Position numbers and translations under genes: made by a program. From IMG/VR virus record IMGVR_UViG_2778261162_000006, positions 1 to 56,751 of that record: a stretch of 56,751 nt of DNA. One strand, written 5' to 3'. The stretch is from a virus (Duplodnaviria > Heunggongvirae > Uroviricota > Caudoviricetes). Positions 1 through 44,201 of this stretch are shown piece by piece (the first letter of the stretch is position 1; each line of letters starts with the position of its first letter). The notes under the pieces were generated by a model. That model was not told the origin of the DNA. It made no database searches and worked only from the letters and a program-made list of their open reading frames with translations.

Positions 1-1254
1 ATGCTGGAACAAATGGGCATTGCCGCGAAGCAAGCCTCGTATAAATTAGCGCAACTCTCCAGCCGCGAAAAAAATCGCGTGCTGGAAAAAATCGCCGATG
101 AACTGGAAGCACAAAGCGAAATCATCCTCAACGCTAACGCCCAGGATGTTGCTGACGCGCGTGCCAATGGCCTTGGCGAAGCGATGCTTGACCGTCTGGC
201 ACTGACGCCCGCACGGCTGAAAGGCATTGCCGATGATGTGCGCCAGGTGTGTAACCTCGCCGATCCGGTGGGGCAGGTAATCGATGGCAGCGTACTGGAC
301 AGCGGCCTGCGTCTTGAGCGTCGTCGCGTACCGCTGGGGGTTATTGGCGTGATTTATGAAGCGCGCCCGAACGTGACGGTTGATGTCGCTTCGCTGTGCC
401 TGAAAACCGGTAATGCGGTGATCCTGCGCGGTGGCAAAGAAACGTGTCGCACTAACGCTGCAACGGTGGCGGTGATTCAGGACGCCCTGAAATCCTGCGG
501 CTTACCGGCGGGTGCCGTGCAGGCGATTGATAATCCTGACCGTGCGCTGGTCAGTGAAATGCTGCGTATGGATAAATACATCGACATGCTGATCCCGCGT
601 GGTGGCGCTGGTTTGCATAAACTGTGCCGTGAACAGTCGACAATCCCGGTGATCACAGGTGGTATAGGCGTATGCCATATTTACGTTGATGAAAGTGTAG
701 AGATCGCTGAAGCATTAAAAGTGATCGTCAACGCGAAAACTCAGCGTCCGAGCACATGTAATACGGTTGAAACGTTGCTGGTGAATAAAAACATCGCCGA
801 TAGCTTCCTGCCCGCATTAAGCAAACAAATGGCGGAAAGCGGCGTGACATTACACGCAGATGCAGCTGCACTGGCGCAGTTGCAGGCAGGCCCTGCGAAG
901 GTGGTTGCTGTTAAAGCCGAAGAGTATGACGATGAGTTTCTGTCATTAGATTTGAACGTCAAAATCGTCAGCGATCTTGACGATGCCATCGCCCATATTC
1001 GTGAACACGGCACACAACACTCCGATGCGATCCTGACCCGCGATATGCGCAACGCCCAGCGTTTTGTTAACGAAGTGGATTCGTCCGCTGTTTACGTTAA
1101 CGCCTCTACGCGTTTTACCGACGGCGGCCAGTTTGGTCTGGGTGCGGAAGTGGCGGTAAGCACACAAAAACTCCACGCGCGTGGCCCAATGGGGCTGGAA
1201 GCACTGACCACTTACAAGTGGATCGGCATTGGTGATTACACCATTCGTGCGTAA
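1..1254 (+). CDS. proA: gamma-glutamyl phosphate reductase, full length 417 aa
   Basis: Translation recognised as E. coli ProA over its whole length; ATG at 1, stop at 1252-1254. Confidence 0.95.
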
Positions 1255-1368: not shown

Positions 1369-1444
1369 GCCGATATAGCTCAGTTGGTAGAGCAGCGCAT
1401 TCGTAATGCGAAGGTCGTAGGTTCGACTCCTATTATCGGCACCA
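1369..1444 (+). tRNA. thrW: tRNA-Thr (anticodon CGU)
   Basis: 76-nt sequence GCCGATATAGCTCAGTTGGTAGAGCAGCGCATTCGTAATGCGAAGGTCGTAGGTTCGACTCCTATTATCGGCACCA with GGTTCGA T-loop and 3' CCA; anticodon CGT by position. Confidence 0.9.
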
Positions 1445-3154: not shown

Positions 3155-3516
3155 TATGCTCCAGCCTCCGGTGCTTTTGGCATTACTGCCCAGTGAGTGA
3201 TATTGACGTTTTCAAGGTCCCCGACCTGAAATGTCCACTGCCATTCTCCGGTTTCTTTTTGTCCCCAGGTGTACCAGAGAGAACGCCAGCCAATTAGCCA
3301 GCCTTCTCCGTTAGCATCGAATAACAAAACACTTTCATTTGCTGGTGGCAGTTCAGTTGACACTGGTATTACTTTGTTTTCCTGTGCTGCACATTTAGCT
3401 TCAAGCGCATCGAATTTACGCACCAGGTATTCAGCATCTGTTTCATTTACTTTCAGATCTCGCGGTACACATCTCCCACGAAGAAACCCTTCCATTTCGA
3501 AAACATTCATGCGCAT
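3154..3516 (-). CDS. DUF551-like phage protein
   Basis: 120 aa; Trp-rich C-terminal region typical of DUF551 proteins; recollection-based. Confidence 0.6.
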   Translation of the reverse strand: MRMNVFEMEGFLRGRCVPRDLKVNETDAEYLVRKFDALEAKCAAQENKVIPVSTELPPANESVLLFDANGEGWLIGWRSLWYTWGQKETGEWQWTFQVGDLENVNITHWAVMPKAPEAGA

Positions 3517-4043
3517 TTGCGTAACTCCGATAACTCGTTAAAGCGTTCCATAAACATCCCGTAGGCATGGCCCGGTGCCAGTGGAATCACGTTGAACATC
3601 TCTGTTGCCGGGATACCTTCCAGTACAGGCCAGAAAGAGCCATCATCAAGCCCGAGATCGCGGCGTTCGGTTGCCAGCATGATGAGATCGGCATATTTCA
3701 CGGGCGTACTCATAACTGGGGGTAACCCGTATTTCTCACGGATTACGGCGTCTATTTTTTCTTCCATTTGTTTATAGTCAGGAAGAAGGCGTTTCAGTGG
3801 TGCGGGAATGTCCTGGCAATACGCTTCTGTTGCATCATGCATTAACGCTTCAAAAGCAAATTCCTGCGGCACCAACTGGCTGCAAAGAACCGCATGTTGG
3901 GCGACGCTGTAGAAGTGCGAAAGATGACCGGCAAAGCGACAGATATTTGAAAGGGAAACCGCGATATCGTTAATATCGATGTCGTCTTTATTTATCCTGT
4001 CATAATAAAAATGCTTCCCGGAAAAAGTTTTAATAAATGACAT
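3507..4043 (-). CDS. HD-domain phosphohydrolase (YfdR-like 5'-deoxynucleotidase)
   Basis: HxxxxxxHD-like motifs (HFYSVAQHA...HDATEAY); start placed at internal Met MSFIKTFSGKH. Confidence 0.75.
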   Translation of the reverse strand: MSFIKTFSGKHFYYDRINKDDIDINDIAVSLSNICRFAGHLSHFYSVAQHAVLCSQLVPQEFAFEALMHDATEAYCQDIPAPLKRLLPDYKQMEEKIDAVIREKYGLPPVMSTPVKYADLIMLATERRDLGLDDGSFWPVLEGIPATEMFNVIPLAPGHAYGMFMERFNELSELRKCA

Positions 4044-5060: not shown

Positions 5061-5423
5061 TTAACGACCTGCTGCGCGGAGTTTTCCGTCAGGTTCACCG
5101 GCAAGAGTCAGTAACTGTCCCTGGTCTTCCTGCAGAATAGTCAGGCGACCACCGCGATTGACATACATCGGCGTTTCGGTGGTGTCTTCTTCGGAAATTT
5201 TCCCGCGGTTAGTCGGGCGAACATATGAGAGTTTGTGTTTGATTTTCACACGGTTCTCATCAAATGGTTCGATTTCCAGGTTGAGTGAGACCTTACCTTT
5301 GGTTTTCGTGTTCATCACACCGGAAGCGACTTCACTGAGAACTGCGCCGATTTTGGTTTCAAATACGCCGCCGTCCAGCTCCCCGATAAATGCCTGCACA
5401 TCAGTACTGCGTTCGCTAGCCAT
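5061..5423 (-). CDS. YfdP-like hypothetical protein (120 aa)
   Basis: Start at internal ATG (5423) preceded by GAGGAG; the longer 226-aa reading extends into a GC-rich structured region with implausible composition. Confidence 0.65.
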   Translation of the reverse strand: MASERSTDVQAFIGELDGGVFETKIGAVLSEVASGVMNTKTKGKVSLNLEIEPFDENRVKIKHKLSYVRPTNRGKISEEDTTETPMYVNRGGRLTILQEDQGQLLTLAGEPDGKLRAAGR

Positions 5424-5891
5424 TTTGCTGCTCCTCATCATATCGACCCTGCAAGGCCGATTAGTTTCTCCACAAAACAGAGAAGAACACCTGCGGTGGC
5501 AGCCGCCCGGATGGATTGGGTTATGAGCCCGTCGTCCGGTGATGCTCTTCTCTGTTTTGTAAAAAGGACGGTACCAGCCGGAAGCAAGGGTACAAACTGG
5601 TACCTCCAGGACTACACACAGCATAAAGTTGTGGTGCCGGGTGCCTCCCGGTGCCTGGCGAAGGTTGCACACCAGACGGGTGGGTATCCACAGAAGGTCG
5701 ACTGTCAGCCTCAACCTTAACCCGCGTGCGCTGAGCCGCATTCACCACAACGCTAAGGATTCTCTCTGGTTAAAAATACTTAGCTGTTATGTGCCTGCTT
5801 TTAGCCACATCAGGCGAGGTGGACCTGGTTATTCCCCAACAACAAGGATTCGGTTAATCTGGTTATCCCCAACAACGCAAAAGGAAAAGAA

Positions 5892-6326
5892 ATGTCCGGT
5901 AATATCTACACGCTGTACAAATCCCACTGTGAAAATGTTGGAAAGTATCGGGGCATTGAAATCAGTGGGGTAGTGTCATCAGTCGAAATAAGCAAAGTGG
6001 AATCAAGGGCAACATTACTTACTCTTCTGGACCTTGTCTTACATGAGCACCGGAAGAAATTCGGCACTCCCTATAATCAGTTGAATGGGAAAAAGGCTCT
6101 GGTTCACCTTATTCTGATGAAGCATCACTGGATGCCAAAACAGATTAATGAGATGAAATTTGATGAACTTCTTCTTTCAATTCAGGATGAACTCACACTT
6201 GATAAAATAAGCGTAACCGCCCAGAAATTTTTAGATTATCGAGACTGGAGATCACAAATTCATCATTTTGATGATTTTGACGAAAATGAATGGGATCCTA
6301 ATTTGTCTGCACAATATCTAAAGTAA
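5892..6326 (+). CDS. Hypothetical protein (144 aa), AT-rich moron opposite to the early-left operon
   Basis: ATG with AAGGAAAAG RBS; low GC versus flanks; preceded by a 34-nt tandem repeat. Confidence 0.65.
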   Translation: MSGNIYTLYKSHCENVGKYRGIEISGVVSSVEISKVESRATLLTLLDLVLHEHRKKFGTPYNQLNGKKALVHLILMKHHWMPKQINEMKFDELLLSIQDELTLDKISVTAQKFLDYRDWRSQIHHFDDFDENEWDPNLSAQYLK

Positions 6327-6519
6327 CATCCTGTGATAAAACCGTGATTTCCTGATCCAGTTTTTTTAAGGAGTCTATTGTTTCCTGTCGATAAGACAGC
6401 ACTTCACGAAGCTGGTTTATAGCTGCCAGCTTCTTTGTCATCCACTCATAAATTTCCTCATCTGTGTAGCCAGGCGCGACGATTTTGGGTTCTGTTTTGT
6501 GCATTTCACATCTCCTCAA
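6298..6519 (-). CDS. Hypothetical protein (73 aa), first ORF downstream of OL-like operators
   Basis: ORF only; 3' end overlaps the convergent 5892..6326 gene by 29 nt; not Arg-rich like lambda N. Confidence 0.45.
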   Translation of the reverse strand: MRRCEMHKTEPKIVAPGYTDEEIYEWMTKKLAAINQLREVLSYRQETIDSLKKLDQEITVLSQDVTLDIVQTN

Positions 6520-6564
6520 GTTATCAGTTACTTGTTGATGGGGACCAGATTGTTAAAGAGCTAA

Positions 6565-6586
6565 GCGTCCTGTAGGGCGCTTTTTT
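6565..6586 (+). terminator. Rho-independent terminator (plus-strand orientation)
   Basis: GCGTCC-TGTA-GGGCGC hairpin followed by TTTTTT. Confidence 0.55.
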
Positions 6587-6665
6587 GTTGCTAACGAATC
6601 ATCCTGGACTTCATATGCCCCAGGCGGCTACTTCGTGGGCGTCCTGCCTGTTCGTTGTTTCGCTT

Positions 6666-6702
6666 GGGTACATTATGTATCTCAAAGGTACATTGTCAAG
6701 TA
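6666..6702. promoter_or_regulatory. OL-like operator sites
   Basis: GGTACATTATGTA and GGTACATTGTCAAGTA; same GGTACA/TGTACC half-sites as the cI-cro intergenic region. Confidence 0.55.
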
Positions 6703-6738: not shown

Positions 6739-7413
6739 TTAGGCTTTGATTTTGTATCTTCTTGGTTTTCCTGAGAAAATCACTGTACCAATTATAGAGC
6801 AATTACCGTTGATCTTAATGTAAGGCTCAGGCCAGTTTGGGTTTAACGCTTTGAGATAACGCTGTGTCCCATCTTCTATCAACCTTTTGAAGGTGGTTTC
6901 GCCTGTATCGTGCATCAATGCAATAACGTCGTCACCGTGGCAGGCAGGTACTTCAGGATCGACAAAAATCATGTCTCCCGGGCGGTACTCATCAATCATT
7001 GAATCACCTATCACCCGCAAGATATAAGTCATTTCCCCACAGGGTACAGGGCAGGGATACGTTTCTGCTGTGCTCAAATCAACCTCAGAATATCCAACTT
7101 CTTTCCATGCTCCGGCCTGTACCCATGATATGACAGGGACTAATGTGATTTGTTTATTAGTGATTGAAACATCAGGTTTTTTTGTGATGTTCGTTGTCTG
7201 GTGTTCTTGATCGAGCCATCCGACAGGCAGGTCGAAACATTTTTCGATGTGTCGTGCCATGCTGTCACCGATATTTTTAGTAGCACCATCTCCCATAAAC
7301 CTGCTGGTCTGGGTTGGCTCGCGATCAATCATAGTGGCAAAGGAAGAATTCCCGCCAACACCATCTCTCAGTTTTCTGGCGTTAGACCGCCGGATGTCAT
7401 GGATTGTTTTCAT
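6739..7413 (-). CDS. CI-like repressor (HTH plus S24 LexA-like peptidase domain)
   Basis: 224 aa; C-terminal VIGDSM and later Lys-containing motif typical of S24 autopeptidases; divergent from cro-like gene. Confidence 0.85.
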   Translation of the reverse strand: MKTIHDIRRSNARKLRDGVGGNSSFATMIDREPTQTSRFMGDGATKNIGDSMARHIEKCFDLPVGWLDQEHQTTNITKKPDVSITNKQITLVPVISWVQAGAWKEVGYSEVDLSTAETYPCPVPCGEMTYILRVIGDSMIDEYRPGDMIFVDPEVPACHGDDVIALMHDTGETTFKRLIEDGTQRYLKALNPNWPEPYIKINGNCSIIGTVIFSGKPRRYKIKA

Positions 7414-36263: not shown

Positions 36264-36659
36264 ATGATTTATTTCTCAAAATCGACTAATGGTTTTTTCT
36301 TTGATGGTATAAACAGCGACATGCCTGCTGACATTGTTGAGATAAGTACAGACTTATACAATGAATTAATTGCCGGACAGCAGGAAGGGGGTAAATTAAT
36401 CACGTCAGATGAAAATGGTTTACCGGTACTGAAATCTCCGGCGATTGATTATGTCGCACGTGCTGAAAATCAGCGAATGCAGTTACTTGCTCATGCCGAT
36501 AATGTCACAGCTGACTGGCGGGTGGAATTAATGCTTGGTGATATCAGCAGTACAGATAAAGAAAAACTATCTGCCTGGATGGACTACAAAAAAGAAGTAA
36601 AAGCCGTCGACACTTCGACGGCTCCTGAGATTAGCTGGCCTGAACTGCCGGAGGCGTAG
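36264..36659 (+). CDS. Tail fibre assembly protein
   Basis: C-terminal ...DTSTAPEISWPELP motif; paralog encoded on the opposite strand. Confidence 0.75.
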   Translation: MIYFSKSTNGFFFDGINSDMPADIVEISTDLYNELIAGQQEGGKLITSDENGLPVLKSPAIDYVARAENQRMQLLAHADNVTADWRVELMLGDISSTDKEKLSAWMDYKKEVKAVDTSTAPEISWPELPEA

Positions 36660-37074
36660 GCCATTCAATATCTGGCGCACCGGAAGTATCGACCAGCTCC
36701 AGTGCGTCCAGATAATCCAGCCACAAATTATATTGCGCCAGTTCGTCACCTTTCAGACGACCAATAGCGGCTTTACCGGGCCATTGCTTACTGTTCATGT
36801 ATTCGTTGGCCAGGTTAATTAGTAGCTGTCTTTCTGATTCAGTAATTTCAATAAGCTCTTCGTGAGTAGGTGGAGGAATATCTGCCCACGCAGGTAGTCC
36901 ATCCTCTCCCGCAATACGGACTTTTCCTTGTGGCGGTTCAGCCATAAACTCACTGACAATATTTTGATTCACCTCCTTAGCATCTGATAAATCCCATCCC
37001 TCTGATTTATATTTATCAATCATATCCACAGGGAAAAAAGCATTATGCCTTGCGCTATAAACATATTCGTTCAT
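36631..37074 (-). CDS. Alternative tail fibre assembly protein (inverted orientation)
   Basis: Shares C-terminal motif ...DTSGAPDIEWPTPP with the plus-strand paralog. Confidence 0.75.
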   Translation of the reverse strand: MNEYVYSARHNAFFPVDMIDKYKSEGWDLSDAKEVNQNIVSEFMAEPPQGKVRIAGEDGLPAWADIPPPTHEELIEITESERQLLINLANEYMNSKQWPGKAAIGRLKGDELAQYNLWLDYLDALELVDTSGAPDIEWPTPPAVQAS

Positions 37075-44073: not shown

Positions 44074-44201
44074 CTGGTTGAGTATACAGTAGTAGACTTT
44101 GAGCGACGAAAGAAAAGGCTGTGTCTAGGGTCGCTCCCGAAAATCCGTACACCTCGACGGACTGGTACAGCCACTACAGTAGAGGACGCTGAGGTGTGCG
44201 T

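Follow-up and report, generated by a model that had tools for sequence, protein, structure and literature searches.

The 56,751-nucleotide (nt) stretch of viral DNA analyzed here (positions 1 to 56,751 of IMG/VR record IMGVR_UViG_2778261162_000006; hereafter, the window) carries, beside its S24 repressor (cI) gene at 6739–7413, a cassette of two convergent and overlapping genes encoding a 144-amino-acid (aa) protein of the ECs1072 family and a 68-aa YdfC-like protein. The locus falls within the SfV/SfIV/CPS-53 group of lambdoid prophages, and this region is 98.9% identical to Shigella phage SfIV. To the left of the repressor gene come a PL-like promoter, the 68-aa gene and, in antisense orientation, the 144-aa gene; beyond these lie a conserved, GC-rich non-coding stretch and then yfdP/yfdQ/yfdR. 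The cassette, its genes and the promoter that fires into it are as follows:

5823–6592, no strand assigned: exchangeable cassette, with bounds set by the loss of homology with phage SfV
5892–6326, plus strand: ECs1072-family gene with an ATG start, encoding 144 aa predicted to be all-alpha and transcribed against the PL operon
6298–6504, minus strand: YdfC-like gene, 68 aa, transcribed first from PL and sharing 29 nt (6298–6326) with the 3' end of the ECs1072-family gene
6656–6694: direct-repeat operator-like sites at the PL-like promoter, found by repeat search
6672–6699, minus strand: strong PL-like promoter, TTGACA-N16-CATAAT, firing into the cassette

The 144-aa open reading frame (ORF), which an initial annotation of the sequence had described as AT-rich and opposite to the early-left operon, is present as proposed, starting with ATG in a cassette with a GC content of 35–44%, as against 52–57% in the left flank. 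Its product scores 157.8 bits (cutoff 70) over residues 4–144 against the NCBIfam model NF033230, "ECs1072 family phage-associated protein", and matches PHROG 5286 with an E-value of 1.5e-90; identical copies of the protein in RefSeq carry the ECs1072 family name. An exhaustive hidden Markov model search of 1.84 billion representative proteins yielded 74 family clusters at 50% identity, with full-length, single-domain members of approximately 145–155 aa and nearly invariant residues at R54, L64, G66, A69, H72 and W134. The AlphaFold2 model obtained from the family alignment consists entirely of helices (predicted local distance difference test, pLDDT, 90.7; predicted template modeling score, pTM, 0.83). 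Sequence searches with the single protein returned no match in Pfam, PADLOC or the PDB, and a 55-member profile gave no meaningful match in Pfam or the PDB, in agreement with the initial annotation, which had recognized no toxin motif in this ORF. The 144-aa gene is hence a member of a conserved, single-domain, all-alpha ECs1072 family without known relatives. Arrays on uninduced O157 Sakai cultures scored ECs1072 as significantly differentially expressed across a growth transition, which constitutes weak evidence of its expression.

The convergent ORF on the minus strand spans 6298–6519 and had been annotated as encoding 73 aa. Its 29-nt overlap with the 144-aa gene was borne out, but the gene is likely to start at the ATG at 6502–6504, giving 68 aa, because PHROG 1744 (E = 7.8e-35) aligns from residue 6 and RefSeq annotates a gene of 207 nt. 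In tblastn searches, the protein is 39–41% identical over residues 1–66 to the products of genes annotated as ydfC or YdfC family (E = 2e-9), while no YdfC-family match was returned by NCBIfam or Pfam. The N-terminal motif (approximately EP-I-AG----EEL--WL) is conserved and followed by a coiled coil, and the C-terminal tail, which lies inside the overlap, is variable and poorly conserved. Profile searches with the YdfC-like family against Pfam and the PDB returned coiled-coil noise only. A 135-aa gene located after ydfC in PPompW was considered as a hidden ECs1072 homolog and discarded (hhalign probability 0.1%).

Homology with SfV ends at 5822 and restarts at 6593, and positions 5823–6592 therefore define an exchangeable cassette. 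SfV harbors a different convergent gene pair at the same position, and in sister phages the cassette is swapped for others. The arrangement recurs in more than 190 IMG/VR loci and in 408 of 5426 complete E. coli genomes (7.5%), so that it is not the product of chance, and the conserved flanks of the slot are present in 1123 of these 5426 genomes (~20%). The designation of the locus as an opposite-strand moron in the initial annotation agrees with these data: the gene lies antisense in the PL operon next to cI, in an AT-rich segment of atypical GC content that contains its own terminator (6563–6587), and other cassettes take its place between the conserved flanks of related phages.

Conservation of the convergent pair

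Divergent ECs1072 relatives and their flanking DNA were gathered from IMG/VR, NCBI and ENA, and a profile seeded on the 68-aa protein was run with jackhmmer against all the ORFs of these loci. A convergent, overlapping homolog of the 68-aa protein was detected in 54 of 55 divergent loci. Over all the fetched loci, 223 of the 225 ECs1072-family genes (which amount to 55 unique sequences) are convergent with an overlapping YdfC-like gene, the two exceptions being a gene at a contig edge and locus L084, where the partner is missing. The two genes overlap by 29 to 323 nt, save in one frameshifted copy with the partner 99 nt away, and pairwise identities in the ECs1072 family and in its partner are correlated (Spearman 0.54).

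The pair occupies several types of operon. It is found on the PL side next to cI (the window and loci L085, L086, L098, L104, L105 and L269–271), in the late region between Q and the holin gene (ST64B, Klebsiella phage KPP5665-2, L108, L109, L111 and L133), behind cro or cII within the PR operon (L137, L266 and the ECs1072 gene of O157 Sakai Sp4) and, in P2-like phages, downstream of cox within the early operon (L272–274). In every case the YdfC-like gene runs along the lytic operon and the ECs1072 gene is antisense to it; in most of the loci examined, including the window, the YdfC-like gene lies close to the promoter of the lytic operon. The pair thus moves as a unit among the lambdoid operons (PL, PR and late) and the early one of the P2-like phages. 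The neighbor of the ECs1072 gene in L269, on the same strand, is the superinfection exclusion gene sieB.

Several reference records leave one of the two genes unannotated. In ST64B (L144, AY055382), the ECs1072-family gene (~36435–36869, minus strand of the record) is unannotated, opposite its partner sb50, and in O157 Sakai Sp4 (L275, NC_002695, ~1169167–1169676) it is the YdfC-like partner that is unannotated, opposite ECs_5703 (former ECs1072), with which it overlaps by 317 nt. The SfIV reference record also leaves one member of the pair unannotated. Literature searches on ECs1072, ydfC and the motif sequences of the locus recovered no description of the pair or of the repeat platform described below, and nothing was found for the motif sequences themselves.

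The repeat platform

The two genes are embedded in an ordered series of repeats and hairpins, all given here on the plus strand:

5805–5822, plus strand: hairpin 1 (CCAC-ATCAGGCGAG-GTGG), which closes the conserved left flank; phages carrying other cassettes are homologous up to 5822
5818–5851, plus strand: repeat unit R1 of a 34-nt tandem duplication, with an AAGGA resembling a Shine-Dalgarno (SD) sequence at its end
5852–5885, plus strand: repeat unit R2, beginning with AATCTGGTTATCC, the left arm of an inverted repeat, and ending with AAGGA (5881–5885), the ribosome-binding site of the 144-aa gene
6531–6551, plus strand: R3c, the inverted repeat copy (CTTGTTGATGGGGACCAGATT), forming the right arm of the inverted repeat around the cargo
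6552–6587, plus strand: conserved block GTTAAAGAGC and intrinsic terminator, right end of the platform

The initial annotation had pointed to two near-identical copies of CTGGTTAT(T)CCCCAACAAC spaced 34 nt apart, and these are found as CTGGTTATTCCCCAACAAC at 5825–5843 and CTGGTTATCCCCAACAAC at 5859–5876. With a chance expectation of 0.04 per window for an 18-mer match with up to 3 mismatches, the second near-copy is not fortuitous; R1 and R2 are 79% identical over the 19 nt aligned by the repeat search. The second copy had been placed over the ribosome-binding site. R2 does end in that site, but the short repeat abuts it rather than covering it, and the real unit is longer, at 34 nt. A third, inverted copy (R3), overlooked in that annotation, lies at 6531–6551, directly before the plus-strand terminator that had been located at 6565–6586 and whose stem (6563–6582) is followed by TTTTTTG. 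A degenerate third direct copy of the segment formed by the end of R1 and the start of R2 (R0, ATTCACCACAACGCTAAGGATTCTCTCTGGTTA) was also observed at 5739–5772, 91 nt upstream of the matching segment (5830–5866) and within a region resembling the small RNA (sRNA) STnc100.

The platform, in the order hairpin 1, R1, R2, cargo, inverted R3, GTTAAAGAGC block and terminator, also houses other genes. The slot of E. coli 2011C-4251 (L146) contains an unrelated 171-aa gene between the same R1-R2 and the inverted copy, GTTAAAGAGC and the same terminator. An exact-pattern scan of IMG/VR for the R1/R2 junction, followed by clustering of the contents between the platform ends, identified at least 10 unrelated types of cargo inside the same platform in SfIV/SfV-like prophages. 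These include four subtypes of the ECs1072 and YdfC-like pair, several coiled-coil and Cys-rich proteins of 156–171 aa, a short ORF followed by a membrane protein of 150–162 aa, and a 176-aa secreted protein. Since the same repeats, inverted copy and terminator bracket unrelated cargos, the repeats belong to the insertion slot, as a duplicated 5'-leader unit of a shared expression platform, and not to the ECs1072 gene.

A single unit is present in the leaders of distant PL-side ECs1072 relatives and in SfV, with its different cargo. These leaders are composed of hairpin 1, TATC and a second hairpin, in which the SD sequence either forms the 3' arm or lies directly next to it. The anti-SD stems change in a compensatory manner (UCUUGG/CCAAGA, UCCUUC/GAAGGA and UCCUUUU/AAAAGGA; -8 to -12 kcal/mol), and the homologous unit in the single-unit relatives forms an SD-sequestering hairpin. 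R1 is the homolog of this hairpin (GGAUCCU/AGGAUUC), with a folding energy of -8 to -9 kcal/mol in most variants and of -4.2 kcal/mol in the window, and R2 is a second copy whose 5' arm matches R3 instead; the true SD of the window is predicted to be unpaired (-1.5 kcal/mol). Sakai-type and related loci present a 12–13-bp anti-SD/SD stem (-26 kcal/mol). In these loci, a good promoter (sigma-70 in the Sakai type) has its -10 element (TATAAT or TATATT) between the two arms of the stem, so that only read-through RNA would be silenced. Among the relatives, the promoters are of the TGgTATCTT type or contain TATAAT. In SfV (L002, U82619), we observed in the same slot an unannotated 81-aa ORF (3462–3707, plus strand), preceded by the leader TCCTTTT...AAAAGGA, that is convergent with and overlaps orf33 (3625–3921, minus strand); the SfV record labels the leader hairpin as a minus-strand terminator. 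The presence of ACAAGGAU at the end of R1 led to CsrA sites being considered in the leader, and these were set aside because the motif overlaps ordinary SD sequences and several cargos have no GGA at their SD. Locus L085 encodes a phage CsrA homolog (2–169, minus strand) directly upstream of its ECs1072-family gene, which may coincide by chance with the CsrA-like ACAAGGAU.

In the 28 unique pairs of R2/R3 arms, AATCTGGAT(AT)CC is always present, and contiguous pairing extends over 4–14 positions, with a mean of 11; counting all pairable positions, the figure is 16.9 of 22. The arms have changed in concert in L165, with AATCTGGATGACT in both, and in L238, with CAATG in both, and the energies obtained by cofolding the short arms of four cargo types range from -23 to -28 kcal/mol. 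The R3 of the window itself has lost three bases relative to the commoner form. Predictions of 5'/3' duplexes between whole untranslated regions (UTRs) were uninformative, with shuffled sequences scoring equally well, and long-range pairing was judged from short-arm cofolding and comparative data only. In L084 (5460–5950), the inverted repeat copy and TTTTTAAAGAGC are kept although the partner gene is absent, and TTTTTAAAGAGC is followed by a GC-rich, apparently structured non-coding region of ~400 nt.

Proposed regulation and its alternatives

Our preferred reading, to which we assign a probability of roughly 0.5, is that the locus is a two-gene moron cassette, lodged in the variable slot that directly follows PL in a lambdoid prophage of the SfIV/SfV/CPS-53 kind, with an ECs1072 gene that is expressed in the lysogen and silenced when lytic transcription arrives from the opposite direction and yields a YdfC-like antagonist. 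In the lysogen, with PL repressed, the ECs1072 gene would be transcribed from its own promoter, and its transcript would extend in antisense orientation over the full length of the YdfC-like gene, ending at the terminator (6563–6587). Upon induction, transcription from PL would collide head-on with that of the ECs1072 gene and be antisense to its message, so that synthesis of the ECs1072 protein would cease and the YdfC-like protein would be made. The maintenance of the pair with fixed polarity in four operon contexts is most simply explained by an antagonistic relationship, the two proteins most likely being a lysogen-phase effector and its lytic-phase neutralizer. The effector would probably act on superinfecting phage, perhaps through exclusion, as suggested by the position of the slot and by the sieB neighbor. 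The R2/R3 inverted repeat most likely corresponds to a long-range RNA stem that seals the cargo, whether this stem forms in the mRNA of the cargo or in the transcript from PL.

A broader proposal, which we put forward tentatively and hold to be less likely than not, is that the ECs1072-family protein and its convergent YdfC-like partner make up a previously unrecognized prophage module for effector function and self-immunity, be it defense against superinfecting phage or a toxin-antidote pair, with its state depending on two colliding promoters, that of the moron being active in the lysogen and the lytic one after induction. Separately, the inverted-repeat-bounded platform of SfIV/SfV-like prophages might serve as a generic plug-in device for the expression and insulation of such cargo.

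Several observations weigh against the regulatory scheme that we favor. L084 keeps an ECs1072 gene without a partner, and Qin/PPompW-type phages carry ydfC-like genes but no ECs1072 gene, indicating that dependence is not absolute. No functional domain is recognizable in either cassette protein, and the 144-aa protein matches no PADLOC defense model. A consensus scan of the window found no plus-strand sigma-70 promoter for the ECs1072 gene; the best candidate found by hand (TTCCCC-N17-TAATCT, 5832–5860) is weak and, if used, would leave the left arm of R2 outside the mRNA. Regarding the long-range stem, the inverted repeat contains the palindrome GGATATCC, which fits a DNA-binding protein as well as it does an RNA stem, R2 is nearly invariant, which limits true covariation, and the inner 9 nt pair modestly above shuffled sequences (4.75 vs 3.36).

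The palindrome is central to an alternative that the initial annotation had raised in simpler form as a fallback and that we regard as possible, albeit doubtful, in which R1, R2 and R3 are DNA operators of a single dimeric regulator, of phage or host origin, that represses or activates the slot cassette by binding both ends of the cargo, possibly with looping. The GGATATCC core is present in most variants and extends to TGGATATCCA in some, the copies lie on both sides of the cargo and in tandem on the left, as in multi-operator systems, and in the arms, conservation towards a consensus outweighs covariation. The motif is nonetheless unlike the GGTACA-type cI/Cro operators of this phage, to which it is unrelated, so that the repeats were rejected as sites for these two regulators, and neither cassette protein contains a DNA-binding domain. 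Furthermore, R3 lacks three palindrome bases in the window and the palindromes of R1 and R2 are imperfect, yet this is the commonest variant, and in L165 the arms have changed together to a non-palindromic sequence.

The polarity of the module could also be the reverse of that proposed above, with the YdfC-like protein as a harmful lytic-phase effector akin to kil or dicB of early-left operons, and ECs1072 as an antidote that protects the lysogen from leaky PL expression by means of its protein, of its antisense transcript or of both. The ECs1072 transcript must indeed run antisense through the whole YdfC-like gene and its ribosome-binding site before reaching the terminator, and the ECs1072 gene almost never occurs without its partner, as expected of an antitoxin. 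YdfC proper, moreover, lies in the dicB operon of Qin-type prophages, among genes that are toxic to the host. We deem this arrangement unlikely, because YdfC-like genes stand alone in many phages and thus have no need of an ECs1072 antidote, the literature searched reports no toxicity for YdfC, and a pure antisense role would not explain the strong conservation of the ECs1072 family at the protein level.

It is likewise quite improbable that the two genes have no functional link, in which case the YdfC-like gene would be an early gene like any other, the region of this neighbor would serve as 3' UTR to a neutral or selfish ECs1072 moron, and the repeats would be mere recombination flanks. Such a view accommodates the exchange of cassettes with homology breaks exactly at the platform edges, the existence of other slot cargos without a convergent partner and the poor conservation of the partner's C-terminal tail within the overlap. 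Mere adjacency, however, would not survive across four operon contexts and two phage lineages at identities below 30%, as this pair has done, and homology between flanks leaves the inverted-repeat relation of the left and right flanks unexplained.

The initial annotation had speculated on a type III toxin-antitoxin organization, in which the 34-nt repeats would be processed into an RNA antitoxin against an endoribonuclease toxin encoded by the 144-aa ORF. The resemblance to ToxIN and AbiQ lies in the direct repeats of ~34–36 nt upstream of a small gene in a mobile element: the window has two ~34-nt units just upstream of a toxin-sized prophage gene, and the repeats of ToxI and antiQ are of similar size, at 35–36 nt. 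ToxN/AbiQ-type toxins adopt an alpha/beta fold. The confident model of the 144-aa protein is all-alpha and shows no ToxN/AbiQ-like fold, and the Pfam, PADLOC and PDB sequence searches returned no match to ToxN/AbiQ or any other toxin. No terminator separates the repeats from the ORF, the SD is part of the second repeat, only one unit is present in distant family members as opposed to the two of the window, and identical repeats precede at least 10 unrelated genes. This explanation is therefore highly improbable, and we rejected it on fold, repeat number and repeat specificity.

Inversion of the cargo at R2/R3 by a DNA invertase of the Hin/Gin type, leading to phase variation, is suggested by an inverted repeat of 13–21 bp around a 0.5–0.76-kb segment that lies between two outside promoter regions, but it is exceedingly improbable and was discarded, given that a query for the inverted junction had no match covering at least 80% of its length in any of the 5426 complete E. 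coli genomes (0/5426), 408 of which contain the normal orientation, that no invertase gene was seen among the neighboring genes and that the R2/R3 motif does not, to our knowledge, resemble hix or gix sites.

Neighboring elements and likeness to known systems

The DNA around the cassette contains additional elements. The PL leader, transcribed as minus-strand RNA from 6593–6660 (with the minus-strand sequence GGCAGGACGCCCACGAAGTAGCCGCCTGGGGCATATGAAGTCCAGGATGATTCG), is shared by phages whose cassettes differ. There is no evident N-like gene, and the leader could be a cis-acting RNA for put-like antitermination or for processing. On the other side of the cassette, positions 5559–5781 of the minus strand, inside the conserved non-coding stretch (5430–5822), show a sub-threshold Rfam match to the prophage sRNA STnc100 (RF02076; 38.4 bits, with a gathering score of 47; E = 1.8e-6). 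A 2026 preprint places STnc100 in one group with the PasD sRNAs. Pairing between the STnc100-like RNA and the cassette leader was predicted with a duplex energy no better than that of shuffled sequences. The 226-aa ORF annotated over this stretch (5061–5741, SfIV_34) is probably an over-extended yfdP (5061–5423), and SfIV_35 (5629–5973) looks spurious. A tRNA gene near the left end of the window (1369–1441, plus strand) is likely the prophage attachment site, and an int-alpA RNA far to the right (RF02996, 45.5 bits; 44118–44185, plus strand) suggests a second integrative element in the window. In the sister prophage of E. coli PSJ-23 (L148), which has the same cassette as the window, a gene for a LEM-3-like GIY-YIG nuclease (3479–3821) lies beside cro, in the usual place of cII-like genes.

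In the concept of Juhala and Hendrix, a lambdoid moron is a supplementary transcription unit that sits between phage genes, brings its own promoter and terminator, and is expressed while the phage is a prophage. The cassette of the window resembles such morons in being an AT-rich insert with its own intrinsic terminator, exchanged in sister phages and oriented against the lytic operon next to the repressor gene. It departs from them in that its cargo is a fixed convergent and overlapping pair, and in that its slot is a platform with inverted-repeat ends.

The sieB/esc genes of P22, with the sas antisense RNA, provide prophage exclusion from a site near the repressor gene while sparing the phage's own lytic cycle. 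The same applies to the prophage exclusion gene BstA, also near the repressor, whose self-immunity element aba spares the lytic cycle of the phage itself. The cassette of the window shares with both systems a position in the immunity or early-left region, a layout that implies opposite programs in the lysogen and in the lytic cycle, and built-in antisense transcription. In contrast, the ECs1072 protein has no sequence or fold similarity to SieB or BstA, the presumed antagonist is a separate convergent protein gene, and exclusion is only proposed.

The OOP RNA of lambda is a convergent transcript that overlaps the 3' end of the early gene cII. The window presents an equivalent convergent 3'-end overlap between an early lytic gene and an opposing unit, but in this case a conserved protein of 144 aa is encoded by the opposing transcript, which would span the partner gene from end to end. 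At the level of RNA structure, precedents are found in the fold-back inhibition of IS10-type elements and in 5'/3'-UTR pairing, as in icaR mRNA. In comparison, the SD of single-unit and Sakai-type relatives pairs with an anti-SD segment located upstream of the leader, and in the Sakai type within the promoter spacer, and complementary segments lie at both ends of the cargo transcript. The window differs from the two in that its SD is predicted to be free and the long-range partner of R2 is not an anti-SD, and the transcript ends considered here are themselves predicted. With Qin YdfC, the 68-aa ORF shares 40% identity and its location as an early-operon gene downstream of a repressor-controlled promoter, whereas the ydfC of Qin/PPompW-type phages lacks a convergent ECs1072-family gene. 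By analogy, the regulatory organization of the locus appears closest to that of exclusion genes with self-immunity and to that of convergent antisense control, and the locus belongs to neither.

These results describe a strongly conserved convergent and overlapping gene pair, always antisense to the lytic operon, in both lambdoid and P2-like phages, of which the literature searched gave no description. They remove a false lead towards type III toxin-antitoxin systems and provide a name and a context for two genes annotated as hypothetical and partly unannotated in the records of O157 Sakai Sp4, ST64B and SfIV. Slots next to the repressor gene are the usual seat of exclusion and defense genes, and the shared inverted-repeat platform offers a handle for the systematic identification of further moron cargos. 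The architecture of the pair, in turn, predicts how a prophage could switch off a lysogen-phase function on entering the lytic cycle.

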